Positions 3,085 to 18,930 of a DNA stretch of 32,000 nt are shown here, piece after piece. The stretch lies in the NCBI RefSeq assembly GCF_017876815.1, contig NZ_JAGIOS010000002.1:1290001-1322000 (forward strand). The letters are read 5' to 3'. The stretch is from Sinorhizobium meliloti (lineage in GTDB: Bacteria; Pseudomonadota; Alphaproteobacteria; Rhizobiales; Rhizobiaceae). Numbering within the stretch: the stretch's first letter is position 1; every line of letters starts with the position of its first letter. A program made the translations under genes and the position numbers. The notes under the pieces are model-generated. The model was not told the DNA's origin and searched no databases. It worked only from the letters and a program-made list of their open reading frames with translations.

Positions 3085-4158
3085 TCAAGATGATTCCGGG
3101 TCGGTTGGATCCGGATGCTTGGCGACGGCGAGACTGGCATCCTCCAATTTGCCTGCAGTTGCTTCCGGTGCGCTGCCAATGATGGCGCGGCGTAGTGTTT
3201 CCGCATACTCCCGTCCTTCATTGGCCCGCCTTCTGTTTGCGGCGGCGGCGGCGGCGAACCCGCTACGATGCGCATCTTGCGCCATTTTTTCGCTGAGAGT
3301 CACCCTTTCCTCGATGATCCGAAGGGCAACTCTCAGAGTCTCGTCGACGGCGCCTTCCGACTCCGCAGCCAAAGCCTCGGACGTATAGGCATGCCCGACT
3401 TGACAACGAAATCGCAGCGGCGGCCAACTCTTGATCTGCGAGAGTACGCCGCCGCAGGCCGGACACGAGATCGGGACCGGGTTCGCAATGGTTAGCATTG
3501 TCTCGGAACCGATCTGTCGGCCGAATGCGATATCGACCTCAAGTCTGATTTCGGCGGGGACGGGAATTGGCGGACCGGCCTCTTCGCCGGTGAGCTCAAC
3601 GAGGAGTGCAGCGAGACCGTCGAGAGGAGCGCGGTAATCGACGTCGCTTGCCCTTAGGGCGCCCATTGGCATGTCCGGCGCAACTGCGTCGCTTGGATTC
3701 TGGACGACTGTCACCCCACCGCACCGCTTGAAATCGGCAAGGCCAGCGGCCCCGTCGTTCAACAGCCCCGTGAGTACGACCGCGACTGACCGCGGTCCGT
3801 ATTTCAAACCGATTGATCGAAAGAGAGGGTCAACCGCCGGTCGGGCCAGGTTCTCGCGGGGCCCGCGGCCAAGCCGGATGACGCCGTCAATGACGAGGAG
3901 GTGGTGGTCTGCCGGCGCAACATAGACGTGCCGGCGCTCTACAGCCTCCCCGTCAACTGCAGTCGTTACAGGAATTCCGGAATGCGCGTTGAATATCTCG
4001 GCGAGTAGATCTTTTCCGCGTGCGCCGACATGTACGACGACGAATACAGCGGCGGCGAAGTCGCCCGGAAGTTTGCCAAGCAAGTGCTTCAGGGCTGCCA
4101 CCGCGCCAAGCGAACCTCCTATGGCTATGACGTCTCGGCGGCCCATCGTATGCTCCAT
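3085..4158 (-). CDS. CheB-type protein-glutamate methylesterase domain protein (no receiver domain) with a C-terminal zinc-ribbon-like extension
   Basis: RDVIAIGGSLGAVAAL..., VVHVG, HVYVAPADHHL, ARPAVDPLFRS, VVLTGLLNDGAAG and VVQNPSDA are CheB methylesterase motifs. The C-terminal part carries CPACGGVL...RFRCQVGHAY. An alternative start at ATG 4146 has a GGAG 6 nt upstream and may be the real start. Confidence 0.85.
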   Translation of the reverse strand: MEHTMGRRDVIAIGGSLGAVAALKHLLGKLPGDFAAAVFVVVHVGARGKDLLAEIFNAHSGIPVTTAVDGEAVERRHVYVAPADHHLLVIDGVIRLGRGPRENLARPAVDPLFRSIGLKYGPRSVAVVLTGLLNDGAAGLADFKRCGGVTVVQNPSDAVAPDMPMGALRASDVDYRAPLDGLAALLVELTGEEAGPPIPVPAEIRLEVDIAFGRQIGSETMLTIANPVPISCPACGGVLSQIKSWPPLRFRCQVGHAYTSEALAAESEGAVDETLRVALRIIEERVTLSEKMAQDAHRSGFAAAAAANRRRANEGREYAETLRRAIIGSAPEATAGKLEDASLAVAKHPDPTDPESS

Positions 4159-4386
4159 CGGGCAAAAACGTTCGACGAGCGGATAAGTTCGATCGCGGTG
4201 AGAATCTTAGTCGGGGAAGGGAAGATTTTCCCAGCCGATACTATCGGCGCCGATATGTCAGCTGATATAAGAGGATCGTGCCGGATGCGTATAATGGTGG
4301 CCACCTCCGGCCTCGAAGGTTGCCGATATTCCCCGCAGAGGAAGCATAGCCGGGCAGGCGGCTCGTTCCTGTGCGGTGCCGGGAGG

Positions 4387-7300
4387 ATGAGCATGGGTCG
4401 AGAATTGGATCCTCCGATTGTCGCAATCGGAGCCTCTGCGGGTGGCATTCAGGCTCTTCAGACCTTCTTTGATCTTATACCGAATGACACGGGCGCCACC
4501 TTCGTCGTCATTGTCCATCTCGATCCGCACGCCAGAAGCGAGCTTGCGAACATTTTGGCGGCACGGACGCGCATGTCGGTTACACAGGTCGAGGACCAAG
4601 CGCGCCTTGAAGGCAACCACGTATACGTCATTGCGCCGAACCGTCAGCTTAAGATTGCCGACGGTACGATAACCGCGCTCCCCTTCGAAGAGCCGCATGC
4701 CCTCCGGGCGCCTATTGATCTTTTCTTTCGGTCGCTCGCCGAGGAGCATGGGAGCGAACTTGCGGTCATTCTCACTGGTGCCGGGGCGGACGGTGCGATT
4801 GGGGTGAAGGCTGTCAAGGAGGCGGGCGGAATCGTGCTCGTCCAGGATCCTGAAGAGGCAGAATATGCCTCCATGCCGCGCAATGCCATCGACACTGAGG
4901 TTGCAGACTTCGTGCTGCCTATCCGGGAGCTTCCTCATCGGGTGGCTGAGTTGCTCGCCGATCGTGATCAACTTCCGTCCGAGCCGTTCCACGCAGACGA
5001 TGACGATATGATCGGGCGAATTCTCGCCCATGTGCGCGGCCGAACCGGACACGATTTCTCCCAATACAAGCGGGCTACGATTTTGCGGCGTATCGGACGG
5101 CGAGCGCAAATTGCCAGGCGGGAGACCTTTGCGGACTACTACAACTACCTGCGTGAGAATCCCGAAGAAGCCCAGGCGCTGTTCAGCGACTTTTTGATTT
5201 CGGTTACGACGTTCTTTCGCGATCCCTCGGCTTTCGAGGCTCTTGCCGAACGAGTCATCCCGCAATTGTTTGACGGAAAAGAAGTCGCCGACGCGATCAG
5301 GGTCTGGGTTCCGGGCTGCGCCACCGGTGAGGAAACCTATACGATGGGCATGCTTCTGCTTGAGGAGGCGGCACGCCGCGACCTTTCGCCGGAAATCCAG
5401 GTCTTCGGCTCAGACCTCGACGCACAGGCACTGCGCATCGCGCGCGAAGGACGATACCCATCGACTATCGAAAGCGATCTCTCGGAGGAACGACTGCGCC
5501 GGTTCTTTCAGCGTGAGGGAGATCACTATCGAGTGCGCCGCGAGTTGCGCGATGTGGTTCTCTTTGCCAGCCACAGCTTGCTCAGAGACCCGCCGTTCTC
5601 CCATCTCGATATGATTTCCTGCCGAAACCTGCTGATCTATCTCGATCGGCAGCTGCAGCAGCAGGTGTGCAATACGTTTCATTACGCGCTCAACGCAGGT
5701 GGCTTTCTCTTTCTCGGATCGTCGGAAAGTGCCGACCACCCCGGGCTCTTCCTCACTGTGGATCGCGAGGCACGTATCTACAGGGCTGTCGCAGGCGGCG
5801 GTGCTCGACGACCCATGGTGCTGCCGGCGCTGCTTGGTCCACATAAGCCGGAAATTAAATCGACCATCATTCGGATGCCGGCGGCAGGGCACGTCAGCGA
5901 CGCAGCGGTACACCGCCAGATGCTCGAGAAAATCGCTCCTCCAAGCATGCTGGTCGATGAAAGTCACCACGCGATTCATCTTTCGGAAAACGCCGGACGC
6001 TTTCTCCAACCCTCAGGTGGCCCCGTCAGTACCGACGCGACGGATCTCGTGCGCGAGGAATTTCGCTTCGATCTAAGAGCGGCGCTGCACCGGGCCTTCG
6101 AGCGGAATGAGCCCACGTTGAGCATGCCCATCCTTGCTGACCTGGACGGGCAACCGCACCGCGTCTACCTGCAAGTGAAGCCGGTGGTCCAAGGGACGGA
6201 ACGCACCCGGCATGCCCTTGTGCTTTTTATCGAAGGCGAGGCAATCGACAAAACCCAGGAGGTCGTGCTCGATACGCTTGATGGGCGCCCGACGATCGAC
6301 GAGGCGATCCGCCGCTTGCAGGAGGAGCTGCAGCTCGCGCAAAACCGGCTTCGCCTGACCAGCGAGGAGTCGGCCACCGCCACCGAAGAACTGCGGGCTG
6401 CCAACGAAGAACTGCAGTCAATGAACGAGGAATACCGTTCGACGGCCGAGGAACTGGAAACGAGCAAGGAAGAGCTCCAATCGATCAATGAGGAGCTGCA
6501 AACCGTCAACAGTGAGCTCAAACTGAAGCTGGAAAGCATATCGCGGGCTCACAGCGACTTGCAGAACTTGATGGCCGCGACCGACATCGCGACGCTTTTC
6601 CTCGACCCGTCCCTTCGTATCAAGCGTTTTACCCCGCGGCTGACGGAGATATTCAACGTCACGCCGAGCGACGAAGGCCGGCCGATCACTGATTTCACGC
6701 ATCATCTTAAATATAAGAGACTTTCTGATGACGCACGCGCGGTGCTCGAGACGCTCACGCCAGTCGAGCACGAGGTGAAGAGCCGCGATGACGGCTGGTA
6801 TCTGGTGCGGATGCGCCCCTACCGCACGATGGAAGACAAGATAGACGGCGTTGTGGTGACCTTCGTCGACATCAGCGAGCGGCGCCATGCCGAAGAGGCG
6901 GCGAAGGAGAGCGGGCAACGCCTTGAGCAGGAAATGCGGCTCGTCGAGCTTTCCCGCTCACCGATATTCGTGTGGGACTTTGACGATGGCATAATGCAGT
7001 GGAACCGCGGCAGCGAGGAACTCTATGGCTATTCGCGTGAGGAGGCGCTTGGAAGGCGCAAGGAAGAACTGCTAAAGACGGCCGTTCCCGGCTCGTCCTT
7101 TGACAAGCTCAGGCGAACACTCAGCCAAAAGGGCCGTTGGAGCGGCGAACTGAACCATACCACGAAGGACGGTCGAGTGCTGACGGTAGAGAGCCAGATC
7201 GAGCTCGTGCCGTTTGGCGAGCGCCGGCTTGTGCTGGAAAGCACCCGCGACATTTCCGACCGCAAACGCTGGGAGCGGCGCGGGCAGCTCTTGCTGAACG

Positions 7301-7878
7301 AGCTAAGCCATCGGGTGAAGAACACGCTCGCTGTCGTCCAGTCGCTGGCGCGCCAGACGCTCCGCACAACCCGATCGAGCGAGGACTTCGTCGAGCGCTT
7401 TGAAGGGCGCCTCGCAGCACTTGCGAGTGCCCATAAGCTGCTTGTCGATTCTGAATGGCGCGGCGCCGAGCTTGACGCACTGGCGCGAGGGCAACTCGAT
7501 GCCTACGCCGGCAGCGATCGGCGCCGACTGCAGATCGAGGGCGAGCCAGTGACGCTGCCGCCGGACCTCGCTACACCGTTCGGTCTCGTGCTCCACGAGC
7601 TCGCGACCAATGCCGCGAAATACGGCGCGTTTTCTACTGGAATCGGACAGGTCAGGCTCAGTTGGAAACTCGGGAACAACGGCCGGAACCTTGGGGTTAT
7701 CTGGCAAGAACGCGGTGGCCCGCCGGTTGAGCCTCCGAGCGAGCAGGGTTTCGGCGGCGTTCTGATCGAGAAGAGCTTGCCAGGATCTACGGTTCATCGC
7801 GATTTCCAACCGGATGGCGTCGTCTGCACGATCGACATCGAGCTTCCGGAGATCCCGCCAGATGGCGCGGAAAAGTGA
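4387..7878 (+). CDS. Multidomain sensor: CheB methylesterase - CheR methyltransferase - PAS - coiled coil - PAS/PAS - HWE-family histidine kinase
   Basis: The ORF is open from 4030, but that extension overlaps the divergent CheB gene. ATG 4387 and 4393 follow GGGAGG (4381-4386). Motifs, in order:
- IVAIGASAGGIQAL and VVIVHLDP (CheB).
- FFRDPSAFEAL, VWVPGCATGEETY, ISCRNLLIYL (CheR SAM-dependent methyltransferase).
- Heptad-rich EELRAANEELQSMNEEYRSTAEELETSKEELQSINEELQTVNSEL.
- PAS-like blocks.
- ELSHRVKNTLAVVQSLARQT (His codon 7309-7311), HELATNAAKYGA and VIWQERGGPPV (HWE kinase signature). Confidence 0.9.
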   Translation: MSMGRELDPPIVAIGASAGGIQALQTFFDLIPNDTGATFVVIVHLDPHARSELANILAARTRMSVTQVEDQARLEGNHVYVIAPNRQLKIADGTITALPFEEPHALRAPIDLFFRSLAEEHGSELAVILTGAGADGAIGVKAVKEAGGIVLVQDPEEAEYASMPRNAIDTEVADFVLPIRELPHRVAELLADRDQLPSEPFHADDDDMIGRILAHVRGRTGHDFSQYKRATILRRIGRRAQIARRETFADYYNYLRENPEEAQALFSDFLISVTTFFRDPSAFEALAERVIPQLFDGKEVADAIRVWVPGCATGEETYTMGMLLLEEAARRDLSPEIQVFGSDLDAQALRIAREGRYPSTIESDLSEERLRRFFQREGDHYRVRRELRDVVLFASHSLLRDPPFSHLDMISCRNLLIYLDRQLQQQVCNTFHYALNAGGFLFLGSSESADHPGLFLTVDREARIYRAVAGGGARRPMVLPALLGPHKPEIKSTIIRMPAAGHVSDAAVHRQMLEKIAPPSMLVDESHHAIHLSENAGRFLQPSGGPVSTDATDLVREEFRFDLRAALHRAFERNEPTLSMPILADLDGQPHRVYLQVKPVVQGTERTRHALVLFIEGEAIDKTQEVVLDTLDGRPTIDEAIRRLQEELQLAQNRLRLTSEESATATEELRAANEELQSMNEEYRSTAEELETSKEELQSINEELQTVNSELKLKLESISRAHSDLQNLMAATDIATLFLDPSLRIKRFTPRLTEIFNVTPSDEGRPITDFTHHLKYKRLSDDARAVLETLTPVEHEVKSRDDGWYLVRMRPYRTMEDKIDGVVVTFVDISERRHAEEAAKESGQRLEQEMRLVELSRSPIFVWDFDDGIMQWNRGSEELYGYSREEALGRRKEELLKTAVPGSSFDKLRRTLSQKGRWSGELNHTTKDGRVLTVESQIELVPFGERRLVLESTRDISDRKRWERRGQLLLNELSHRVKNTLAVVQSLARQTLRTTRSSEDFVERFEGRLAALASAHKLLVDSEWRGAELDALARGQLDAYAGSDRRRLQIEGEPVTLPPDLATPFGLVLHELATNAAKYGAFSTGIGQVRLSWKLGNNGRNLGVIWQERGGPPVEPPSEQGFGGVLIEKSLPGSTVHRDFQPDGVVCTIDIELPEIPPDGAEK

Positions 7879-8272
7879 AGACGGCAGGCTTCTTGAGGGC
7901 GCCAGGGTCCTGGTGGTCGAGGACGAGATTTGGATCGCTCTCGACTTGGAAGCAGCATTTCTCGATGTTGGAGCTCAGGTGGTGGGACCCTGCGCGACCC
8001 TTGAGGCCGCATTGGTGGCGGCGAAAAATGAAGCGCTGGCGCTCGCGGTGCTCGACATTCGCTTGGGTACGACAACCACCGAGAGGGTCATCGATCTCCT
8101 CAACGAGAGGGGCATTCCATTCTTCTTCTATAGTGGCCAAACGCTACCCGACGACATGCGAAAGAAAAGCAACGGCGCCATCGTCATCGCAAAGCCCGCC
8201 ACGCAGCAGGATATTGTTGGGACGGCCGCAGGAGTGCTTATAGCCTCGAACCTGCCGCCTTCGCCCTTGTAA
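7862..8272 (+). CDS. Single-domain response regulator (receiver only), translationally overlapped with the kinase
   Basis: RVLVVEDE (acidic pocket), LAVLDIRL (phospho-acceptor Asp), FYSG, AKP. ATG 7862 overlaps the kinase stop (7876-7878) by 17 nt. The in-frame ATG 7814 is an alternative start. Confidence 0.85.
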   Translation: MARKSEDGRLLEGARVLVVEDEIWIALDLEAAFLDVGAQVVGPCATLEAALVAAKNEALALAVLDIRLGTTTTERVIDLLNERGIPFFFYSGQTLPDDMRKKSNGAIVIAKPATQQDIVGTAAGVLIASNLPPSPL

Positions 8273-9888: not shown

Positions 9889-9982
9889 AATTCCGAGGCA
9901 ATCCGCCCCCTGATTCCGAAATGATCTCGCCCCCCAATTCCGAGAAATAGTCGCCCCCTGATTCCGAGATGATGCCGCCCCC
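9889..9982 (+). repeat. Four tandem ~23-bp subterminal repeats at the IS21 left end (probable transposase-binding sites)
   Basis: AATTCCGAGGCAATCCGCCCC / GATTCCGAAATGATCTCGCCCC / AATTCCGAGAAATAGTCGCCCC / GATTCCGAGATGATGCCGCCCC. Confidence 0.8.
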
Positions 9983-10055
9983 ATCGGAAAGCATCTGGCG
10001 TGGGTGTTCTGCTGGTGTGAAGTTTCTTCCTTCGACGTGACGAGGAAGGAACGGG

Positions 10056-11606
10056 ATGCCTGCGGAGAGACTGGAGATGCGGCGTGTCCGCGAGATATTG
10101 AGATATCGCTTCGAACAAGGACTTGGCCACAAGTCGATCGCGGTTCGGGTTGGAGCTGCGCCATCGACGGTGCGCGAGACGCTTCGGCGTGCGGCCATTG
10201 CGGAGCTATCGTGGCCGTTGGGTGACGACGTCAGCGATGCAGTCCTGGAAGCGGCGCTTTACAAGGCAGCCGGGACGAAGACGGGTCATCGTCGGAGCCC
10301 TGAGCCGGACTGGGCGCAGGTCCACCGCGAGCTGAAGCGCAAGCATATGACGCTGCAGATCCTTTGGGACGAATACATCAGCCGTTATCCGGAGGGCTAT
10401 CGCTACAGTCGCTTCTGTGACCTCTACCGCGGCTGGGCGATGAAGTTGCCTGTGACGATGCGGCAGGATCACGCGGCCGGCGACAAGCTGTTCGTCGACT
10501 ACGCCGGCGACACGGTCACGGTTGTCGTTGATCGGCTGTCCGGCAAGACACGGCAGGCGCACCTGTTCGTGGCGGTTCTGGGAGCATCCAGCCTTTCATA
10601 TGCGCAGGCACGTTGGAGCGAGGCGCTTCCCGACTGGATTGAATGCCATATCCTGGCGCTGGAGTACTTTGGCGGTGCGCCAGCCTTGCTGGTTCCCGAC
10701 AATGCCAAGGTAGCGATCATCAAGGCCTGCCACTTCGATCCCCAGGTCAACCGGACGTATTGCGGGATGGCGGCCCATTATGGCAGCGCCGTCTTGCCGA
10801 CGCGGCCGCGACGCCCGCGGGACAAGGCGAAAGTGGAAGCTGCGGTTCGTATCGTCGAACGCTGGCTATTGGGCCGGCTGCGCCATCGCATCTTCTATAG
10901 TTTGGCCGAGGTCAATGCGGCGATTGGCCAATTGCTCCATGATCTCAATGATAAGCGCGTTCTGCGCCGTGTCGGCGCCACGCGCCGCCAATTGTTCGAG
11001 GAGCTTGATCGTCCGGCTTTGCGACCGCTGCCTGTCGAACGTTATGTCTTTGCCGAATGGCGTATCCGGCGCGCCGGGCTGGATTATCACGTCGAGATCG
11101 AGCGGCACTATTATTCCGTTCCCTATCGCTTTGCCCGCGAGCAGGTCGAGGCTCGTATCACCGCCAATACGATCGAGATCTTCCACAAGGGCGAGCGAAT
11201 TGCCGCTCACCGGCGCTCCAGCGGCAACGGCAAGCACACGACGATCCCCGATCATATGCCCTCTGCGCATCGCCGCTTTGCCGACTGGACGATTGAACGG
11301 ATTCAACGCGAAGCCTCTGCGATGGGGCCGGATGTTGCGCTGTTGTGCGAGCGCATTCTTGCCGACAGGCCTCATCCCGAGCAGGGCTTTCGAGCTTGCC
11401 TCGGCATCATCCGCCTCAACAAGAGCTTCGGCCGCGACAGGGTCAATGCCGCTTGCGGCCGTGCGTTGGAGATTGGCGCACGAACCTATGGCTCGGTGCG
11501 ATCCATCCTCGACAATCACCTTGACCGGACGGCTGCCTCAAATGGAGCGGCGCCGCATGAACCGATCCATCACGCCAACATCCGCGGACCTCGCTATTAC
11601 CACTAA
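10056..11606 (+). CDS. istA: IS21-family transposase IstA
   Basis: 516 aa. N-terminal HTH (GLGHKSIAVRVGAAPSTVRETLRR), then KLFVDYAGDTV...HLFVAVLGASS...LVPDNAKVAI, typical of the IstA DDE catalytic region. AGGAAGGAA SD lies upstream. Confidence 0.92.
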   Translation: MPAERLEMRRVREILRYRFEQGLGHKSIAVRVGAAPSTVRETLRRAAIAELSWPLGDDVSDAVLEAALYKAAGTKTGHRRSPEPDWAQVHRELKRKHMTLQILWDEYISRYPEGYRYSRFCDLYRGWAMKLPVTMRQDHAAGDKLFVDYAGDTVTVVVDRLSGKTRQAHLFVAVLGASSLSYAQARWSEALPDWIECHILALEYFGGAPALLVPDNAKVAIIKACHFDPQVNRTYCGMAAHYGSAVLPTRPRRPRDKAKVEAAVRIVERWLLGRLRHRIFYSLAEVNAAIGQLLHDLNDKRVLRRVGATRRQLFEELDRPALRPLPVERYVFAEWRIRRAGLDYHVEIERHYYSVPYRFAREQVEARITANTIEIFHKGERIAAHRRSSGNGKHTTIPDHMPSAHRRFADWTIERIQREASAMGPDVALLCERILADRPHPEQGFRACLGIIRLNKSFGRDRVNAACGRALEIGARTYGSVRSILDNHLDRTAASNGAAPHEPIHHANIRGPRYYH

Positions 11607-11618
11607 GGAGAACGAAAG

Positions 11619-12356
11619 ATGCTTGCCCATCCAACACTGGATAAATTGAATGCCATGGGCCTGGCCGGCATGGCAAAGGCCTTTGGCGAACTTGTTGCCA
11701 ACGGCGAAGCCGAACATCTCTCGCACGCCGAATGGCTCGGACTGCTGCTCGAACGGGAGTGGAGCTCCCGTTACGATCGGAAGCTTGCGGCACGCCTCAG
11801 GTTTGCCAAGCTTCGCCACCAGGCCACCCCAGAAGATGTCGACTATCGCGCCGACCGCGGCCTCGACCGTGCTCTCTTCATGAAGCTGCTCGGTGGCGAC
11901 TGGATCAACGCCCATGACAATCTGGCCATTTGCGGACCCTCGGGTGTCGGAAAGAGTTGGTTGGCTTGCGCTCTCGGCCACAAGGCTTGCCGAGACGATC
12001 GCTCAGTTCTCTATCAGCGTGTCCCAAGGCTGTTTGCCCAGCTTGCGCTCGCGCGTGGTGATGGCCGCTACGCCCGCCTGCAACGGACCTTAGGCCATGT
12101 TCAGCTCCTGATACTGGATGATTGGGGGCTCGAGCCGCTCAACGAACAGGCCCGCCACGACCTGCTGGAAATCCTCGAAGATCGCTATGGACGCAAATCA
12201 ACGATCATTACCAGCCAACTTCCCGTGTCCGCATGGCACGGCGTCATTGGCGACCCAACCTACGCCGATGCCATACTCGACAGGTTGGTCCACAATGCCC
12301 ACCGCATCGAATTGAGCGGCGATAGTCTGCGCCGAAATCTACCGCGCAAAGCTTGA
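11619..12356 (+). CDS. istB: IS21-family helper ATPase IstB
   Basis: 245 aa. Walker A GPSGVGKSW, Walker B LLILDDWG, IstB-like end AILDRLVHNAHRIELSGDSLRR. AAGGAGAA SD lies upstream. Confidence 0.92.
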   Translation: MLAHPTLDKLNAMGLAGMAKAFGELVANGEAEHLSHAEWLGLLLEREWSSRYDRKLAARLRFAKLRHQATPEDVDYRADRGLDRALFMKLLGGDWINAHDNLAICGPSGVGKSWLACALGHKACRDDRSVLYQRVPRLFAQLALARGDGRYARLQRTLGHVQLLILDDWGLEPLNEQARHDLLEILEDRYGRKSTIITSQLPVSAWHGVIGDPTYADAILDRLVHNAHRIELSGDSLRRNLPRKA

Positions 12357-12409
12357 CACCTCGCCTGAATGAACTGACAACAATCATCGCCTGCAGACCC
12401 CACTAAACA

Positions 12410-12482
12410 GGGGGCGAGATCATCCCGGAAACCGGGGGCGCAATCATCTCGGAACAAAGGGGCGGCTTCATCGGAATCGGCA
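12410..12482 (+). repeat. Three inverted copies of the subterminal repeat at the IS21 right end
   Basis: GGGGGCGAGATCATCCCGGAA / GGGGGCGCAATCATCTCGGAA / GGGGCGGCTTCATCGGAATCGGCA are reverse-complement versions of the left-end repeats. Confidence 0.8.
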
Positions 12483-12489: not shown

Positions 12490-13088
12490 CTTGCTTTTCC
12501 ACTTCGCCGGCGCTCTGTCACTGGCCATGCTCTTGCTATCCCAACTATTCGCTTGGACAGGTCGACGACTGGATGAACGAGATCTATCCGATGTGGGTCG
12601 AGGCCCACGGCATCATGATTGTCACCCCGGTCAATTGGTACCAGGTCTCGTCCCCGATAAAACTGATGATGGACCGGTTGGTTTGCGCTGACGGCGGCAA
12701 CCCGGATCCGACCGCAACGCAGGGTAAAGATGCGAAGCTTGCCAAGGCGCTCGAGCTCGAAGGCTGGAACTACCCTCGGCATCTCGCAGGACGGCTCTTT
12801 TCAGTTATCGTTCATGGTGACGTGGAGGGAGCGGAGAACGTTCGGCGCAGCCTGTCAGACTGGCTTTGCTACATGCATCTGGAACCCGCCGGTCCATTGG
12901 CGGAGTTGGATCGGTATATCGGCTATTGGAAACCCTACGCATTGAGCCATGAAGAATTGGATGCCGACGAGGCGGTGCAGGAAGAGGTACGCAACGCAGC
13001 GCGAACATTGGTTGAGGCGGTTAGCGCCAAGCGAGCCGGAAAGCTGGTTTCGGCAGGAAGACAGCTTTCGGCGCCACGGCAAAAGTAG
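12490..13088 (+). pseudogene. Flavodoxin-family / iron-sulfur flavoprotein-like gene, 3' portion
   Basis: The frame is continuous with 9371-9884 once the IS is excised. It reads ACFSTSPALCHWPCSCYPNYSLGQVDDWMNEIYPMWVEAHGIMIVTPVNWYQVSSPIKLMMDRLVCADGGNPDP...VIVHGD. This is a Cys cluster followed by a flavodoxin-like fold block, as I recall it from rhizobial flavodoxin family proteins. Confidence 0.7.
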
Positions 13089-13380: not shown

Positions 13381-13749
13381 ATGGTGAACCCGGATCTACA
13401 CGAATCACACGATCTTATCGCCAGCGATAAGGTGGTAGGCACCGCCGTCTATGACATGAATGGGGAAAACGTCGGCTCTATCGAGCGGATCATCCTGGAA
13501 AAGCGCGGCGGCCGCGTCGCATATGCTGTGATGAGTTTCGGCGGCATACTCGGTATTGGACATGAGCATTACCCGCTTCCATGGGAAATGCTTGATTACA
13601 ATACGGACCTTAGTGGGTTCCAAGTGAACATCACCAAGGAGCAGGTCGAGGGTGCTCCGAGATATCCTGCGGGCCAGGATTACGATTGGAGTCCCGAGAG
13701 CGGCCGCCGCGTCTACGACTACTACGGAATCGCACCGTATTGGGTATGA
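13381..13749 (+). CDS. PRC-barrel domain protein
   Basis: 122 aa. LIASDKVVGTAVYDMNGENVGSIERIILEKRGGRVAYAVMSFGGILGIGHEHYPLPWEML is the classic PRC-barrel pattern. A strong SD, AAGGAGGAA, sits 6 nt upstream of the ATG. Confidence 0.9.
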   Translation: MVNPDLHESHDLIASDKVVGTAVYDMNGENVGSIERIILEKRGGRVAYAVMSFGGILGIGHEHYPLPWEMLDYNTDLSGFQVNITKEQVEGAPRYPAGQDYDWSPESGRRVYDYYGIAPYWV

Positions 13750-14329
13750 GCCACCGTTGGTCCGAGCCGACCGCCGCCTCTTCACTGTTGAACGCTGTCG
13801 CGGCGGAGTCTGTGGTCCGCCGTTTCTGTCCAACGAAAGAGCGGGCGACGAAGGACGTCGAGGTGCTGGGTACGGCCAGATAGCAACGAGGCGCTTGCTT
13901 TGGGCAGTTTCGCGGATGGGAGCTCAAGGTCTATCGGCGCTCGGATGACATGGGGAAAGTCGTGATGCGTATGACGCGCGTACCGCGGCCGACCCCTTCG
14001 TCTTGCAAAGGGTCGTGACAGCCGAAACTTCCGAAATTGATCCGAAGCGCACGGCTCCCGTCCTCGACTTCTTGAAGTCGGCAGCATGAGCGGACCGTTT
14101 CCGGCCTGAACGGTCGCTGACGAAGTCTATTCGGTTAAAGCAGTGTCGAAGGAACTGCGCACGAGCTGACCGTCGATCCACTCGGAACCGATGATGCGCA
14201 TGCTGATTATCGGCTGCAGCATGGATGTCCGGTCGAGGCGCCCGCTCTCTAAGGTAGCCCTTGTTGCATCAGACAGGATACGCTCCTTGCCGCGTCCAGC
14301 AGCTCGGCTTCGGATTATGCTCCGGCCGC

Positions 14330-14854
14330 TTATCTTGCTGACCCACCCGGTGACACCAGCCAGTGGTCGAGCGACAGCCTCCCCGCGCCCCAGGTAATCA
14401 AACCAAGCGCCATCGCCGCCCAAGTCAGATGAATGGGCCAGCCATCCGGAACGGTGAGCTGGATGACGATGGCCATTGCGAGGAGGCCAAGCGCGGCAAG
14501 GCGTGTCGCCAAGCCCAAGGCCAAAAAGATTGGCAGCATAACTTCGGCGGAGGCAACCACACAGGCAGTCGCCGCCGGTGCCGGGAAAGGATAGGGGCCT
14601 CCCGGCAGGTGAAGCTGGAATTCCGACGTGAACAGAAGAACGGCAACGTCGTTGAGCTCAAGAAAGCCATCCCATTTGCCCAGGCCGGAGCGCCAGAAGG
14701 GCACGGCAAGCGCCAATCGCAAGGCGAGTTGGGCGAGTGATGCCGGGGCGATGGCGGCGATCATGCCATCGATCTTGGCCGCCCAACGTCTCACTTTCCG
14801 GTTTCTGTGTCTGGCGAGGAAGGTTCGTACCGAGGTCACCTTTTCACCCTCCAT
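14330..14854 (-). CDS. DoxX-family integral membrane protein (last gene of the bufferin-type operon)
   Basis: LRLALAVPFWRSGLGKWDGF...ASAEVMLPIFLALGLATRLAALGLLAMAIVIQL...GAGRLSLDHWL is the DoxX pattern. Start choices are TTG 14869, ATG 14854 and GTG 14839 (GGAGG 7 nt upstream of the GTG). It overlaps or abuts the bufC stop at 14844-14846. Confidence 0.85.
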   Translation of the reverse strand: MEGEKVTSVRTFLARHRNRKVRRWAAKIDGMIAAIAPASLAQLALRLALAVPFWRSGLGKWDGFLELNDVAVLLFTSEFQLHLPGGPYPFPAPAATACVVASAEVMLPIFLALGLATRLAALGLLAMAIVIQLTVPDGWPIHLTWAAMALGLITWGAGRLSLDHWLVSPGGSAR

Positions 14855-15644
14855 GGCGGATAGCCGCAAAAGCGCCGGCCTCCAGCATCACCCTGATGGC
14901 GGTCGCGAGATCGAAATTCCGGCAGCAAGCGTGCCCCGCAACCGCAGCACGTCCGAATGGTTCGCCTTCAAGGAGACTGCCGACGAAGATGTCGACCCCC
15001 CGCGAAAGAGCGCGGACCTCCACCTCGAGCGACGGCCGCGTAATCAACGCGGTTTCCGGCACACTAGCCTCGATGCGCCCGACTGGACCATCCCCGCGAT
15101 TTGCCAAGAACACCGTCACTGCTGGATAGGCGGAGCGGACGACGCCGGTCGCCGGGTGCGGTTCGAAGACCAGGTTGGCGAGTTCAGTGGGCTTTGCCGT
15201 CGCCAACACGTGCGGCAGCAGGGCGGCTGCGTCTGCCGCATGATAGGCGTCGAGCCAGGCCCGCTCGATCCGTGCGATGTCGGCTAGCCACGGCATCGGC
15301 CTGGCATAGGCGTAGCGTTCTATGAAATCGGGAAAATCCTGGCCGTATTCGAAGAGGAGCGGCGATTTCGGTGGCATCTCGCGGATATGGAACCGGGCCA
15401 TGGCCCGGAAGAATGCGTCGCCGGTGATGCGCCTCGTCGCTGGGAACGTGGCAGCGAGCGCCTCGATGAGGCTTACCGTCACATTGTTGCGGTAGACATT
15501 GAAGCGCCTGTCGGCTGCCTTGCTGTGAGGGCCCGTAAGGAGCGTCGGTGTTGGGCAAGCGGGATCGAGTAGCCCGGCGACGAACGGGGCAGGATAGTCG
15601 AGGTCGTCGGCCGCCTCTAGGAAACAGTCCCTAACCTCGCACAT
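14844..15644 (-). CDS. bufC: DUF2063-family partner protein of the DUF692 enzyme (BufC/MbnC-like role)
   Basis: RRFNVYRNNVTVSLIEALAATFPATRRITGDAFFRAMARFHIREMPPKSPLLFEYGQDFPDFIERY matches the DUF2063 N-terminal pattern. ATG 15644 is preceded by AGGAGA at 6 nt and overlaps the upstream gene by 14 nt. The track start at 15674 is less likely. Confidence 0.85.
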   Translation of the reverse strand: MCEVRDCFLEAADDLDYPAPFVAGLLDPACPTPTLLTGPHSKAADRRFNVYRNNVTVSLIEALAATFPATRRITGDAFFRAMARFHIREMPPKSPLLFEYGQDFPDFIERYAYARPMPWLADIARIERAWLDAYHAADAAALLPHVLATAKPTELANLVFEPHPATGVVRSAYPAVTVFLANRGDGPVGRIEASVPETALITRPSLEVEVRALSRGVDIFVGSLLEGEPFGRAAVAGHACCRNFDLATAIRVMLEAGAFAAIRHGG

Positions 15645-16584
15645 GCAATGTCTCCTGTCGGAGGCCAGCAGCATGGCGGTTCATGAGCATTTGGGCGGCC
15701 TGCGCCTCACGTTTCAATATTGGCCAGTCCGGTATCGCGCTATCCCATTCGACTAACGTCGGAATCGGGCCACATAGGGCGATCACCACGTCGAAGAGCT
15801 TCCACACCGCGTCGGCTACCGGCTTGTCGTGGCTGTCGATCAGCAGGAGATCGCCTTCGTCATCCTGCTGCTCCGTATGACCGGCCAGGTGAATCTCGCC
15901 GACATGGGCCATCGGGAAGTCGGACAGATAGTCTAGGGCGGAAAAGCCATGATTGGCGGCCGAAACGAAGACATTGTTGATGTCAAGCAACAGACCGCAT
16001 CCTGTGCGTCTCACCAGTGCCCGGATGAACGCCGTTTCGCTCATCGTCGATTCCTTGAAGAGCAGGTAGCTCGAGGGATTTTCCAGTAAGAGCGGCCGTC
16101 CGATCACCTCCTGTACCTCGTTGATGTGCTCTGCGACCCGCTGCAAGCTTGCCTCGGTATAAGGTAAGGGCAAGAGATCGTTGTAGTAGGTCGTGTCGTG
16201 CGTCGACCACGCCAGATGTTCCGAGACGAGCGCCGGCTCGTATCGCTTGACGAGGGCAGCGAAGCGGGCGAGATGACCTTTGTCCAATGACTGCGGCCCA
16301 CCGATAGACATGCACACGCCGTGAAGCGAGACTGGATAGTCCTCGCGTATTTTCGTCAGTGCGGCATGCGGCGGGCCGCCTGCTCCCATGTAGTTTTCCG
16401 CATGAACTTCGAAAAAGCCGCCAGTCCACTCGTCGTCAGCGAGAATGGCCGGCAGATGCTGGTGCTTAAAGCTGGTGCCAGCCAGCCCATCGACCGGATG
16501 CGCCGGAAAGAGAGGAATTCCCAGCTGAGCGCGATCCGCGTGAATAGTCAGTTCCGTCACTGTCGCCTCCACTTTCCGGCTCAT
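15631..16584 (-). CDS. bufB: DUF692 / MbnB-family metalloenzyme (RiPP Cys-modifying oxidase, BufB-like)
   Basis: 317 aa, TIM-barrel family. Motifs: FFEVHAENY, YPVSLHGVCMSIGG, LVSEHLAW, LLLENPSSY, GLLLDINNVFV, GEIHLAGH, LLIDSHD, TLVEWD. An alternative GTG start at 16560 has GGAGG 5 nt upstream. It begins 8 nt after the precursor gene stop. Confidence 0.9.
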   Translation of the reverse strand: MSRKVEATVTELTIHADRAQLGIPLFPAHPVDGLAGTSFKHQHLPAILADDEWTGGFFEVHAENYMGAGGPPHAALTKIREDYPVSLHGVCMSIGGPQSLDKGHLARFAALVKRYEPALVSEHLAWSTHDTTYYNDLLPLPYTEASLQRVAEHINEVQEVIGRPLLLENPSSYLLFKESTMSETAFIRALVRRTGCGLLLDINNVFVSAANHGFSALDYLSDFPMAHVGEIHLAGHTEQQDDEGDLLLIDSHDKPVADAVWKLFDVVIALCGPIPTLVEWDSAIPDWPILKREAQAAQMLMNRHAAGLRQETLHVRG

Positions 16585-16592
16585 CGTTGCGA

Positions 16593-16916
16593 TTAAGACG
16601 GCACGTCGCGTGTCAGCGGTTCAGGCGAGCCATTGCGATCACCCGGCAGTTCCATTGTCGTGCAGGTGCCGCCGTCGACGAATTTCCAGGCATTGCCCTG
16701 GTAGTCGACAGTCGACGTGGCCTGGCAGGTCGTGCCCGGGCCGGCAGCGCAATCATTCTGACCCTTGAGCGCGACGCCGTAGCACTTCTCCTTTCCTGCA
16801 TCCATCGCAGCCTTGACCTCGGCCTGCGAAAGCGGCGCGGCGCTTGCGAGCGACGACAGCGCGGTCGCCACAGCGCCGGCAAGCATGGCGGTATTGATCG
16901 AACTTCTGGTAGACAT
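16593..16916 (-). CDS. bufA: DUF2282-family secreted Cys-containing precursor (bufferin-type, BufA1-like)
   Basis: 107 aa from ATG 16916, with GGAGAGAAGGA just upstream. It has a Sec-type signal peptide [28 protein letters not shown]. The core carries four Cys (residues 45, 56, 64, 85) in the DUF2282 pattern: [27 protein letters not shown]...GGTCTTM. The track ORF start at 16982 adds 22 implausible residues. Confidence 0.88.
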
Positions 16917-16971
16917 GATCCTTCTCTCCATCGTTGCTGCATGCACCTTCGCTTCGGCGCACAGTCCGTCA

Positions 16972-16998
16972 TTCGCAGCCACCGGGAGCGATGTTACA
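16972..16998 (-). promoter_or_regulatory. ECF (SigF-type) promoter candidate for the bufA operon
   Basis: On the minus strand: TGTAACA (16998-16992), 16 nt, CGAA (16975-16972). It lies about 55 nt upstream of the bufA ATG. A second GTAACC sits 13 nt further upstream (17011-17006). Confidence 0.55.
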
Positions 16999-17123
16999 TT
17001 CTGCGGTTACACGCTTTCGTGAGTGCCGCCCCATTTGAATTTGCGGCGAATTTGGGAAGACTAAGAAGACAGATGTTTCTGCTCCCACGGCCCACCTGCG
17101 GCAAAACATTTGCCGCGCTGACA

Positions 17124-17149
17124 TGTAACAAGTAGCGAAACTCGGCGAA
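17124..17149 (+). promoter_or_regulatory. Similar ECF-type motif in front of the sigma factor gene
   Basis: TGTAACA (17124-17130), 15 nt, CGAA (17146-17149). It lies only ~10-15 nt before the GTG starts, so it would give a near-leaderless mRNA. Confidence is therefore lower. Confidence 0.35.
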
Positions 17150-17159
17150 TTGGGAGGAA

Positions 17160-17702
17160 GTGCAGGTGAACGGCGCGGACGACGGCGATCTCGCCGGGCT
17201 CCTTCGCACGGCGCTCGGTGGCAACGAGAAGGCCTACAGCGAGTTCCTCCAAAGTGCGGCTGCCCTTGTTCGCATCTGGGCGCGCCGGAGAGTGGCGTCT
17301 GTCGGTCTCGATCCCGAGGACATCGTCCAGGAGACACTGCTGGCGGTCCATTTAAAGCGCCATACTTGGCGGACCGACGGACCGGTGAAGCCTTGGCTCT
17401 TTGCAATCGCGAGGCACAAGCTCGTCGACGCCTTACGACGACATGGCCGTCATTCTCGCGTGCAACTCAGTGAGGTTGAAGGCAATCTCGCGACGGAAGA
17501 GGCGGAAACCACCCGGGACTGGGAGATTGGCCGCGCGCTCGAGGTGCTGACGCCCGGCCAACGCTCGGTGGTGACTGCTATATCGGTCGAGGGACGTACG
17601 ATCGCCGAGGCTGCAAGAAGCCTCGACATGAATGAAACCGCAGTTCGCGTCGCGCTCCACCGCGGTCTTGCTGCCATCGCCAGGCGATTTGGACGGAAGT
17701 GA
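17160..17702 (+). CDS. ECF-family RNA polymerase sigma-70 factor (SigF-like)
   Basis: Region 2: EDIVQETLLAVHLKRHTWRTDGPVKPWLFAIARHKLVDALRR. Region 4: LTPGQRSVVTAISVEGRTIAEAARSLDMNETAVRVALHRGLAAI. GTG 17160 or GTG 17166 could be the start; GGGAGG at 17152-17157 favours 17166. Confidence 0.9.
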   Translation: MQVNGADDGDLAGLLRTALGGNEKAYSEFLQSAAALVRIWARRRVASVGLDPEDIVQETLLAVHLKRHTWRTDGPVKPWLFAIARHKLVDALRRHGRHSRVQLSEVEGNLATEEAETTRDWEIGRALEVLTPGQRSVVTAISVEGRTIAEAARSLDMNETAVRVALHRGLAAIARRFGRK

Positions 17703-17703
17703 T

Positions 17704-18342
17704 ATGGAAACGCAGGAACTCATCAAGGCCTTGGCTGCGGACAACCAGCGAAGCGGGATGCCGATGACTCTCGTCTGGACGGGTGCCGCTGTCATCGCCA
17801 TCGCCCTCGCTGCTTGCGTCTTCTTCGTACTTCTCGGGCCCAGGCCGGATATTACAAGCGCAATGCAGACGCTGCGCTTCCCGTTCAAGATTGTGGTGGC
17901 GATCGCGCTTGCCGCGAGCTCCCTCAGTGCACTGCGTGCGCTGTCGCGGCCGGAAACCGAGCCAAGCGACTTGCTGCCCCCTCTGATCGTCGCTCCGGCG
18001 CTGATCGCGATAGCGGTCCTCGCCGAGCTCATCGCCATGCCGGCGAGCACATGGTCCGCGAGGCTCGTCGGAACGAACAGCCTCGTGTGCCTGAGCTTCA
18101 TCCCGCTGATCGGCATCGGGCCCCTCGCTCTGCTGCTCCTTGCGCTGCGTTATGGGGCTTCTTCTCATCCCGCGGTTTCAGGCGCAGCTGCCGGATTGGC
18201 TGCCGGCGGCATTGCGGCGGCCTTCTATGCCTCGCATTGCACGGACGACTCTCCGCTTTTCGTCGCAACCTGGTACACGATGGCGGTGGCAATTTTGGCC
18301 ATTGCAGGGGCATTTGCCGCTCGCCGCGTAATTCACTGGTGA
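17704..18342 (+). CDS. nrsF: DUF1109 / NrsF-family membrane anti-sigma factor
   Basis: ATG 17704 is 1 nt after the sigma stop (TGAtATG). METQELIKALAADN is the typical DUF1109 N-terminus, followed by six hydrophobic segments. There are Cys residues in NSLVCLSF and YASHCTDDSPLF. The track ORF start at 17632 overlaps the sigma gene and is rejected. Confidence 0.85.
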   Translation: METQELIKALAADNQRSGMPMTLVWTGAAVIAIALAACVFFVLLGPRPDITSAMQTLRFPFKIVVAIALAASSLSALRALSRPETEPSDLLPPLIVAPALIAIAVLAELIAMPASTWSARLVGTNSLVCLSFIPLIGIGPLALLLLALRYGASSHPAVSGAAAGLAAGGIAAAFYASHCTDDSPLFVATWYTMAVAILAIAGAFAARRVIHW

Positions 18343-18496
18343 GTAGCGGGCCAGCGCCGGCGCAATAATTTCAAAATCGCTACTGCGATCGGAGTTGCTG
18401 CGGCGCCGCTTGCGAAGCTCAGAGCTGGATGAGGAAAAGTGAGTGCGGTTTTCCGCCCGCGTCCCGCGTCTCAACTTATTAGAAGCGATTTCCTTC

Positions 18497-18526
18497 ATGA
18501 TTTTAGATCGCCCGATCTAAAATCAT
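18497..18526. repeat. 30-bp AT-rich near-perfect palindrome between convergent genes
   Basis: ATGATTTTAGATCG-CC-CGATCTAAAATCAT: 14-bp arms with a 2-nt centre. Confidence 0.7.
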
Positions 18527-18930
18527 CGCGATCCAGAGCAGGCTTCAATCCCGATTGTATGTTCACGGCAAAAGCAATCCGTCCAGACAGGGCCGGAGAG
18601 GGCCACCCCTTTGCGGTTGCGCGCGAGTAGCGGGAAAACGTTGAGCGGATCGGGCCATTTTATTGGCTTGTTGGAGTTTGCCGCCGATCCATGCGCAGGG
18701 CTATACGAGACAACAAGCGGGCTGGAATCCAGATTGGCCCTGGGTCGGACCGCGTTAGCTGCGACCATACTCAGCTTTTTACATTCGAATTGCCGCGCGC
18801 GGCACCACGATCGTACTCCGCTAGGCTGCGTATTCATGAAGGGTCACGCTTTGTTTCAGCCACCGAGCGGATAGGTCCTGCGCGGCCGGCCATGTCTCAG
18901 CGGTCGAAGCGGCGAATGATGGTGTGCCGC

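Follow-up and report, generated by a model that had tools for sequence, protein, structure and literature searches.

The operon CCNA_03363-03366 (CC3254-CC3257) of Caulobacter produces bufferin 1, as reported by Leprevost et al. 2024 (PMC11626156). Its precursor, which contains the domain of unknown function (DUF) DUF2282, is modified by the multinuclear non-haem iron oxidase (MNIO) BufB1 together with the DUF2063 protein BufC1, and its Sec signal peptide is removed (PMC11626156). In the product, Buf1, CysII and CysIII are converted into 5-thiooxazoles (-4.03 Da each), whereas CysI and CysIV are unmodified and joined as a disulfide; bufferin 1 binds copper, both as Cu(I) and as Cu(II), and allows better growth under copper stress (PMC11626156). 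The 5-thiooxazole assignment was later confirmed by selective labelling, and the sister product oxazolin was reassigned to the same chemistry. Here we analyze a 32,000-nucleotide (nt) stretch of Sinorhizobium meliloti DNA (the window), in which four minus-strand genes at 14330-16916 and a divergent regulatory gene pair very likely form a canonical bufferin-1 (BufA1/DUF2282-type) cluster for a ribosomally synthesized and posttranslationally modified peptide, located on the megaplasmid pSymB and equipped with its own extracytoplasmic function (ECF) sigma factor of group ECF16 and NrsF anti-sigma factor.

The gig operons of Cupriavidus metallidurans and Legionella pneumophila have the same four-gene architecture and are placed in the same family by the bufferin authors; they are induced by transition-metal stress, for example gold, cadmium and copper (PMC11626156), whereas the S. 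meliloti operon has no known inducer. Oxazolin (HvfABCX of Haemophilus influenzae) and other EGKCG captophorins are sister systems combining an MNIO, a DUF2063 partner and DoxX, and, as in the bufferin class, oxazolin-type captophorins have a Sec signal peptide on the precursor and Cu-binding 5-thiooxazoles in the product. However, the oxazolin precursor has EGKCG repeats where the window precursor has a DUF2282 fold, and the window enzyme reaches 230 bits on the HvfB model, the cutoff of which is 360. Methanobactin (MbnABC) shares the enzyme superfamily, equivalent iron-ligand motifs and a Cys-derived Cu-binding heterocycle. By contrast, its product is an oxazolone-thioamide, its precursor MbnA is short, with a leader peptide and without a Sec signal, and methanobactin is secreted outside the cell for copper acquisition, not for defence against copper. 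MbnB is distant from the enzyme encoded in the window, which scores 57 bits on the MbnB model TIGR04159 (cutoff 325), and the window precursor is a DUF2282 protein with a Sec signal, which places the locus outside the methanobactin class.

The same locus (SMb20527-SMb20532) has been described in another strain, as the regulon of RpoE7. In S. meliloti strain 1021, Lang et al. 2018 examined the ECF sigma factors one by one by overexpression and found SMb20530-SMb20527 to be the strongest RpoE7 targets, with log2 fold changes of 6.8, 6.2, 5.1 and 4.7 (PMC6180224). They mapped both RpoE7 promoters, pointed out the orthology to Caulobacter SigF-NrsF and CC3254-CC3257, and termed the products conserved hypothetical proteins (PMC6180224), bufferins being first described in 2024. 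The promoter sequences in the window are identical to those of strain 1021. The features of the locus are as follows.

14330..14869, minus strand: doxX / bufD (SMb20527 orthologue), DoxX-family membrane protein of 179 amino acids (aa); PF07681, 58 bits
14844..15644 as annotated (266 aa), or to 15674 in the longest open reading frame (ORF; 276 aa), minus strand: bufC (SMb20528 orthologue); PF09836 DUF2063, 88 bits
15631..16584, minus strand: bufB (SMb20529 orthologue), MNIO/DUF692 enzyme of 317 aa; PF05114 MbnB_TglH_ChrH, 345 bits
16593..16916, minus strand: bufA (SMb20530 orthologue), 107-aa bufferin-1 precursor; PF10048 DUF2282, 80 bits, E 1.3e-22
16725..16751, minus strand: block with the Cys56 codon (16749-16751) and the Cys64 codon (16725-16727), the CysII/CysIII equivalents and predicted 5-thiooxazole sites, a role taken from mass spectrometry and nuclear magnetic resonance of Caulobacter Buf1
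16971..16998, minus strand: bufABCD promoter, RpoE7 (ECF16)-dependent, TGTAACA-N16-CGAAT; start site ~16962
17124..17150, plus strand: rpoE7-ecfR7 autoregulatory promoter, RpoE7-dependent, TGTAACA-N15-CGAAT; start site ~17159
17160..17702, GTG start at 17160 or 17166, plus strand: rpoE7 (SMb20531 orthologue), ECF16-group sigma factor with Sigma70_r2 and r4_2 domains
17704..18342, plus strand: ecfR7 / nrsF (SMb20532 orthologue), NrsF anti-sigma factor of the type with six transmembrane segments, 212 aa; PF06532, 179 bits

An earlier reading of the window, made from the nucleotide sequence alone (the sequence-only reading), had proposed a bufferin- or gig-type operon of four co-directional genes. 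All four ORFs lie where it placed them, with every frame intact, and each protein scores above the curated cutoff of the profile that it had named (DUF2282, DUF692, DUF2063 and DoxX). Its class assignment held for each feature that could be tested in silico. S. meliloti SM11 pSymB and several other strains are 100% identical to the window, and the strain 1021 counterpart, with SMb20530-SMb20527 and SMb20531/32, is 98.8% identical over window positions 14000-18500. The predicted packing of the genes, with 8-nt spacing or short overlaps, was accurate in part. Overlaps exist between bufB and bufC (14 nt with the annotated bufC start, 44 nt with the longest ORF) and between bufC and doxX (26 nt with the annotated TTG start of doxX). 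The 8-nt gap between bufA and bufB, on the other hand, requires the bufB start ATG 16584, which lacks a Shine-Dalgarno sequence; the annotated GTG 16560 (309 aa) is preceded by GGAGG, leaves a 32-nt gap and is probably the true start. The start of doxX is uncertain because most homologues align only from residue 30-36, and TTG 14869, ATG 14854, GTG 14797 and ATG 14764 are the candidates.

The precursor carries the features expected of a bufferin 1. BufA has 107 residues, inside the family range of 80-120, and the DUF2282 profile covers residues 42-90 (cutoff 22.4 bits). The sequence-only reading had described a Sec-type signal peptide and exactly four Cys, both of which are seen in the translation. 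Judged by inspection, residues 1-26 (nt 16839-16916) form the signal peptide: Arg4 makes its n-region basic, it has a hydrophobic stretch, and cleavage is predicted at the motif A-S-A|A-P; the cut would leave an 81-aa core, and the A-x-A motif is kept in the BufA orthologues. The four Cys are at positions 45, 56, 64 and 85, corresponding to Cys19, Cys30, Cys38 and Cys59 of the core. In an alignment of 80 BufA sequences these Cys are invariant, their spacing C-x10-C-x7-C-x20-C (11/8/21) is found in 77, and the block around CysII and CysIII is the most conserved part of the protein. The sequence-only reading had suggested comparing the Cys with those of Caulobacter BufA1; by the positions printed by the bufferin authors (core Cys12/23/31/52; PMC11626156), and not by a direct alignment, the spacing is identical. 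A Buf2-type precursor with 6 or 12 Cys was rejected, as the NCBIfam BufA2 model gave 20 bits against a cutoff of 60. A sequence search of the Protein Data Bank (PDB) with BufA returned chance matches only, and none of 270 retrieved homologues had the 68-residue tail of 6978.35 Da of Caulobacter BufA1.

The length of 107 aa is supported by the transcript start at ~16962 together with the GGAGAGAAGGA Shine-Dalgarno sequence that precedes the bufA ATG at 16916. A 129-aa bufA beginning at GTG 16982 is excluded, since the mapped -10 element (16971-16975) and the start site are located downstream of this GTG. A 112-aa form with an ATG start lacks a Shine-Dalgarno sequence and was likewise rejected.

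The predicted monoisotopic masses are 8331.87 Da for the unmodified BufA core and ~8321.79 Da for the mature form. The difference of -10.08 Da results from two 5-thiooxazole rings (-4 Da each) and one disulfide (-2 Da), an expected total shift of -10 Da. The earlier claim that Cys residues become 5-thiooxazoles with a loss of about 4 Da per modified Cys thus agrees with Buf1 for CysII and CysIII, but not for the outer CysI and CysIV, which form a disulfide there (PMC11626156).

Based on profile scores, BufB belongs to the bufferin branch of the MNIO enzymes. It passed the NCBIfam equivalog NF050167 MNIO_BufB ("MNIO family bufferin maturase") with 374.7 bits against a cutoff of 310, and remained well under the cutoffs of the HvfB, ApyH, MbnB and ChrH models. 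Its closest solved structure is 3BWW (E 5e-40). The sequence-only reading had listed the motifs FEVHAENY, SLHGV, SEHLAW, LLLEN, LDINN, IHLAGH, IDSHD and VEWD as those of an MbnB-like enzyme, and all are present. A set of 81 sequences shows no variation at H61, H88, E168, D201, N204, H232, D250 and H252, and 80 of them also have E279. Judged by the motifs that contain them, these nine residues are the counterparts of the iron ligands His54/His90/Glu133/Asp163/Asn166/His192/Asp208/His210/Glu239 of MbnB (PMC9060507), five of the nine equivalences being directly visible in the alignments of BufB with MbnB and 3BWW.

The DUF2063 protein had been assigned the position of the enzyme partner, and the structure predicted for it agrees. 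The AlphaFold model of BufC (predicted local distance difference test, pLDDT, 86.9; predicted template modelling score 0.83) has its best PDB matches in TglI (8HCI_A, E 5e-6), the partner of the MNIO TglH, and in the Neisseria DUF2063 protein NGO1945 (3DEE, E 5e-4), likewise an MNIO-enzyme partner, over 232-243 columns; searching the PDB by sequence gave chance matches only. The match to MNIO partners spans the whole protein, whereas the match of the model to an isolated RiPP precursor recognition element (RRE; 5V1V) is weak (E 3.7), so that an RRE-like C-terminal subdomain in BufC is no more than suggested by the model. The fourth protein passes the DoxX profile (cutoff 23.6 bits) and reaches 59.7 bits on the HvfX family model NF050144, under its cutoff of 80.

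One claim of the sequence-only reading did not hold, namely that proteins of this class are still routinely annotated only as DUFs. In addition to the BufB equivalog, NCBI and UniRef give BufC orthologues the name "HvfC/BufC family peptide modification chaperone", and a 96%-identical S. meliloti protein and many orthologues of BufA the name "BufA1 family periplasmic bufferin-type metallophore".

The sequence-only reading had noted neither the divergent rpoE7 and nrsF pair nor the two promoters of ECF16 type that lie in the 243 bp between this pair and bufA. The pattern TGTAACA-N15/16-CGAAT has two matches in the whole window, one facing each way, compared with 0.00 expected, and both 39-mers printed by Lang et al. 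for SMb20530 and SMb20531 (PMC6180224) occur exactly. Our start sites, ~16962 and ~17159, take the last base of each printed 39-mer as the start, as the layout of their table suggests. RpoE7 scores 245 bits on NF009165, above the cutoff of 198. Cys129 and Cys179 of NrsF are kept in 26 and 25 of 27 sequences, respectively, and their 50-residue spacing is the same as that of the functionally important C131 and C181 of Caulobacter NrsF (PMC3511200). The locus therefore has the sigma gene followed by the anti-sigma gene, the two conserved Cys and a GTAAC-N16-CGAA target promoter that mark an ECF16 sigma/NrsF module. The promoter motif is also conserved: of 78 related loci, 57 have GTAAC-N15-17-CGAA upstream of bufA at a nearly fixed distance of ~75-90 nt, compared with 0 of 78 control segments. 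It is present in 35 of the 52 loci that have no ECF sigma or NrsF gene inside 4 kb, and the regulator is thus often encoded elsewhere.

The RpoE7-dependent start at ~17159 is 1 nt before GTG 17160 and 7 nt before the annotated GTG 17166. The rpoE7 transcript would hence have no leader or almost none, with the GGGAGGAA run (17152-17159) placed upstream of it. By analogy with a proposal for Caulobacter sigF, a further, RpoE7-independent rpoE7 promoter may be present upstream. A sigma-70 promoter scan of 13700-18900 found no promoter-like site, and an Rfam scan of the whole window matched no RNA family. Downstream of doxX there is no clear terminator in the intrinsic terminator scan of 13700-18900; the single terminator-like site in this segment was rejected, because it is inside doxX and one site is fewer than the chance expectation.

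Relatives were taken from a genome scan with BufB, which returned 80 loci of different species, mostly Alphaproteobacteria and Burkholderiales, with no Caulobacter among them. bufA is directly upstream of bufB in 79 of these loci, bufC is downstream in 79, and doxX directly follows bufC in 71; an ECF sigma and NrsF pair is found within 4 kb in 26. When each of the four genes was compared pairwise with 13 relatives, dN/dS (the ratio of nonsynonymous to synonymous substitution rates) mostly came to ~0.1-0.2; with the closest relative the values were 0.24-0.43. For bufA dN/dS is 0.06-0.32, and these low values indicate that the small precursor gene is under purifying selection. At 95% identity or more, 40 plasmid records have the buf region, compared with 42 for a flanking control segment. 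The locus is common, but not universal, in S. meliloti, which agrees with Lang et al. (PMC6180224).

Compared with Caulobacter vibrioides bufA1B1C1D1 and sigF-nrsF, the window locus shares the four genes, their order, the divergent or neighbouring ECF16 sigma and NrsF genes, the two conserved NrsF Cys and the type of promoter (GTAACC-N16-CGAA in Caulobacter, GTAACA-N16-CGAA here). The differences concern size and setting. The precursor has 107 aa here and 93 in Caulobacter, the core 81 and 68 residues, the segment before CysI 18 and 11, and the tail after CysIV 22 and 16; unlike C. vibrioides buf1, the locus is on a megaplasmid, and there is no buf2 paralogue within this window. With a DUF2282 precursor, a signal peptide, four Cys, a BufB-clade MNIO, a DUF2063 partner and DoxX all in place, the assignment to the bufferin-1 class has all the certainty that sequence analysis can give.

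By homology to this system, we propose the following mechanism. A periplasmic stress signal would inactivate the membrane anti-sigma factor EcfR7/NrsF, probably via Cys129 and Cys179, and so free RpoE7, which transcribes bufABCD and its own operon from the two TGTAACA-N15/16-CGAAT promoters. In the cytoplasm, the iron enzyme BufB, kept on the precursor by BufC, would use O2 for a four-electron oxidation of each of Cys56 and Cys64, giving 5-thiooxazole rings. The modified precursor would be exported by Sec, signal peptidase would cleave after Ala26, and the Cys45-Cys85 disulfide would be made in the periplasm. The resulting 81-residue mini-protein would bind Cu(I)/Cu(II) via thiooxazole thiolates and nitrogens and thereby buffer excess periplasmic copper; DoxX would have an accessory role.

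Several points weigh against a simple transfer of the Caulobacter model. The chemistry, the order of export and the copper function assigned here are those expected from Caulobacter Buf1. The match of the BufA and BufA1 Cys comes from printed positions and the Pfam profile rather than a pairwise alignment with BufA1, and the AlphaFold model of BufA (mean pLDDT 39.4) is too poor for a check of the fold, the sequences in its alignment being all at least 77% identical. Reporter fusions to rpoE7 and SMb20530 were not induced by H2O2, CdCl2 or K2CrO4, and the stresses reported for these fusions do not include copper (PMC6180224); copper is therefore a candidate here, both as natural signal and as physiological metal. 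Cd and chromate do induce the Caulobacter operon, in contrast to the S. meliloti fusions (PMC6180224). In addition, Rm41, one of the S. meliloti strains without the locus, and S. medicae lack it, and ECF sigma factors are dispensable for symbiosis (PMC6180224), which makes any role an accessory one.

The same cluster and chemistry could serve another stress in S. meliloti, either a thiophilic metal (Au, Ag, Hg, Zn or Ni) or redox or sulfur stress, with DoxX and the thiol-bearing rings acting as a periplasmic redox buffer and not as a sink for copper. The failure of the Caulobacter inducers Cd and chromate to induce the S. meliloti fusions (PMC6180224) is in line with this, as is the first discovery of homologous operons as gold-induced genes (PMC11626156). 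ECF16 relatives in Bradyrhizobium and Brucella are tied to oxidative or hypochlorite stress, and the authors of a family survey raise the possibility of a DoxX-linked protection against oxidative or sulfur stress. However, H2O2 likewise did not induce the fusions (PMC6180224), all characterized members of the MNIO-partner class bind copper, and the metal-binding block around CysII and CysIII is conserved with the relatives; we consider this explanation unlikely. A related possibility is that the S. meliloti bufferin is wired to a signal unlike that of Caulobacter, for a use specific to rhizobia: copper, or some other thiophilic metal, could be handled in the rhizosphere or inside the symbiosome, or cuproenzymes of the periplasm could be given copper or denied it. 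The lack of response to Cd, chromate and H2O2 is the reason for entertaining it, and we regard it as speculative and improbable.

The cluster might also be an accessory passenger in a plastic part of pSymB, either silent or decaying, that yields no functional product under natural conditions. Its absence from some strains (PMC6180224), its lack of a known inducer and its place, with an IS21 element on one side and on the other the indel hot spot at which strain 1021 has 2.7 kb extra, speak for this view. But every reading frame is intact, dN/dS is mostly ~0.1-0.2, neither the catalytic residues nor the Cys vary, RpoE7 strongly activates the promoter (log2 6.8; PMC6180224) and the locus is retained in ~40 of 42 closely related pSymB records, which together make a silent or decaying passenger very improbable. 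It is also hardly to be expected that BufB here makes another modification, for example an oxazolone-thioamide as in methanobactin, or modifies all four Cys, as the sequence-only reading had implied. Oxazolone-thioamide and 5-thiooxazole are isomers and were mistaken for each other earlier, for instance in oxazolin; yet the enzyme scores as a BufB and far under the MbnB cutoff, the products of all closely related MNIOs are now assigned as 5-thiooxazole after revision, and the outer Cys are unmodified in Buf1 (PMC11626156). A bufferin-1 cluster under RpoE7 control is the reading that we prefer.

The surroundings of the cluster on pSymB are variable. An IS21-family insertion element occupies ~9900-12468, with imperfect inverted ends at ~9900-9982 and ~12405-12468, istA at 10056-11606 and istB at 11619-12356. 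The ORF that follows directly, at 12573-13088, aligns with the FMN_red profile (152 positions) only from 62 to 136 and thus looks like a 5'-truncated flavoreductase gene. Just downstream of doxX, strain 1021 pSymB has 2.7 kb of extra DNA (window 13948/13949; L082 205-2949) encoding a 402-aa GGDEF diguanylate cyclase and a 210-aa TetR regulator, and nearer doxX a further ~68 extra bases (window ~14114-14118; L082 3120-3187). From doxX to the PRC-barrel gene (13381-13749) the sequence is an indel hot spot, and the buf genes are intact in both strains. Farther away, at ~3085-8272, the near-identical record CP140921 annotates a 353-aa and a divergent 1161-aa gene, both as "chemotaxis protein CheB"; the latter overlaps a small response-regulator gene at its end and is probably a multi-domain sensor fusion.

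In conclusion, the locus, intact and already both described and annotated, is an ordinary representative of a family known before. Papers from 2024-2026 established this family together with its chemistry and its role with copper, and the exact locus was mapped in 2018 as the RpoE7 regulon, so that the discovery value is little. The practical value is modest: the assignment links with a known function those RpoE7-controlled proteins of S. meliloti that had been called "conserved hypothetical". If it were indeed wired to a different signal and served a use specific to rhizobia, the cluster would be a plasmid-borne accessory trait affecting fitness in metal-polluted soils and not a simple copy of Buf1. 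The host is an agriculturally important symbiont that is exposed to copper-based fungicides in soil.

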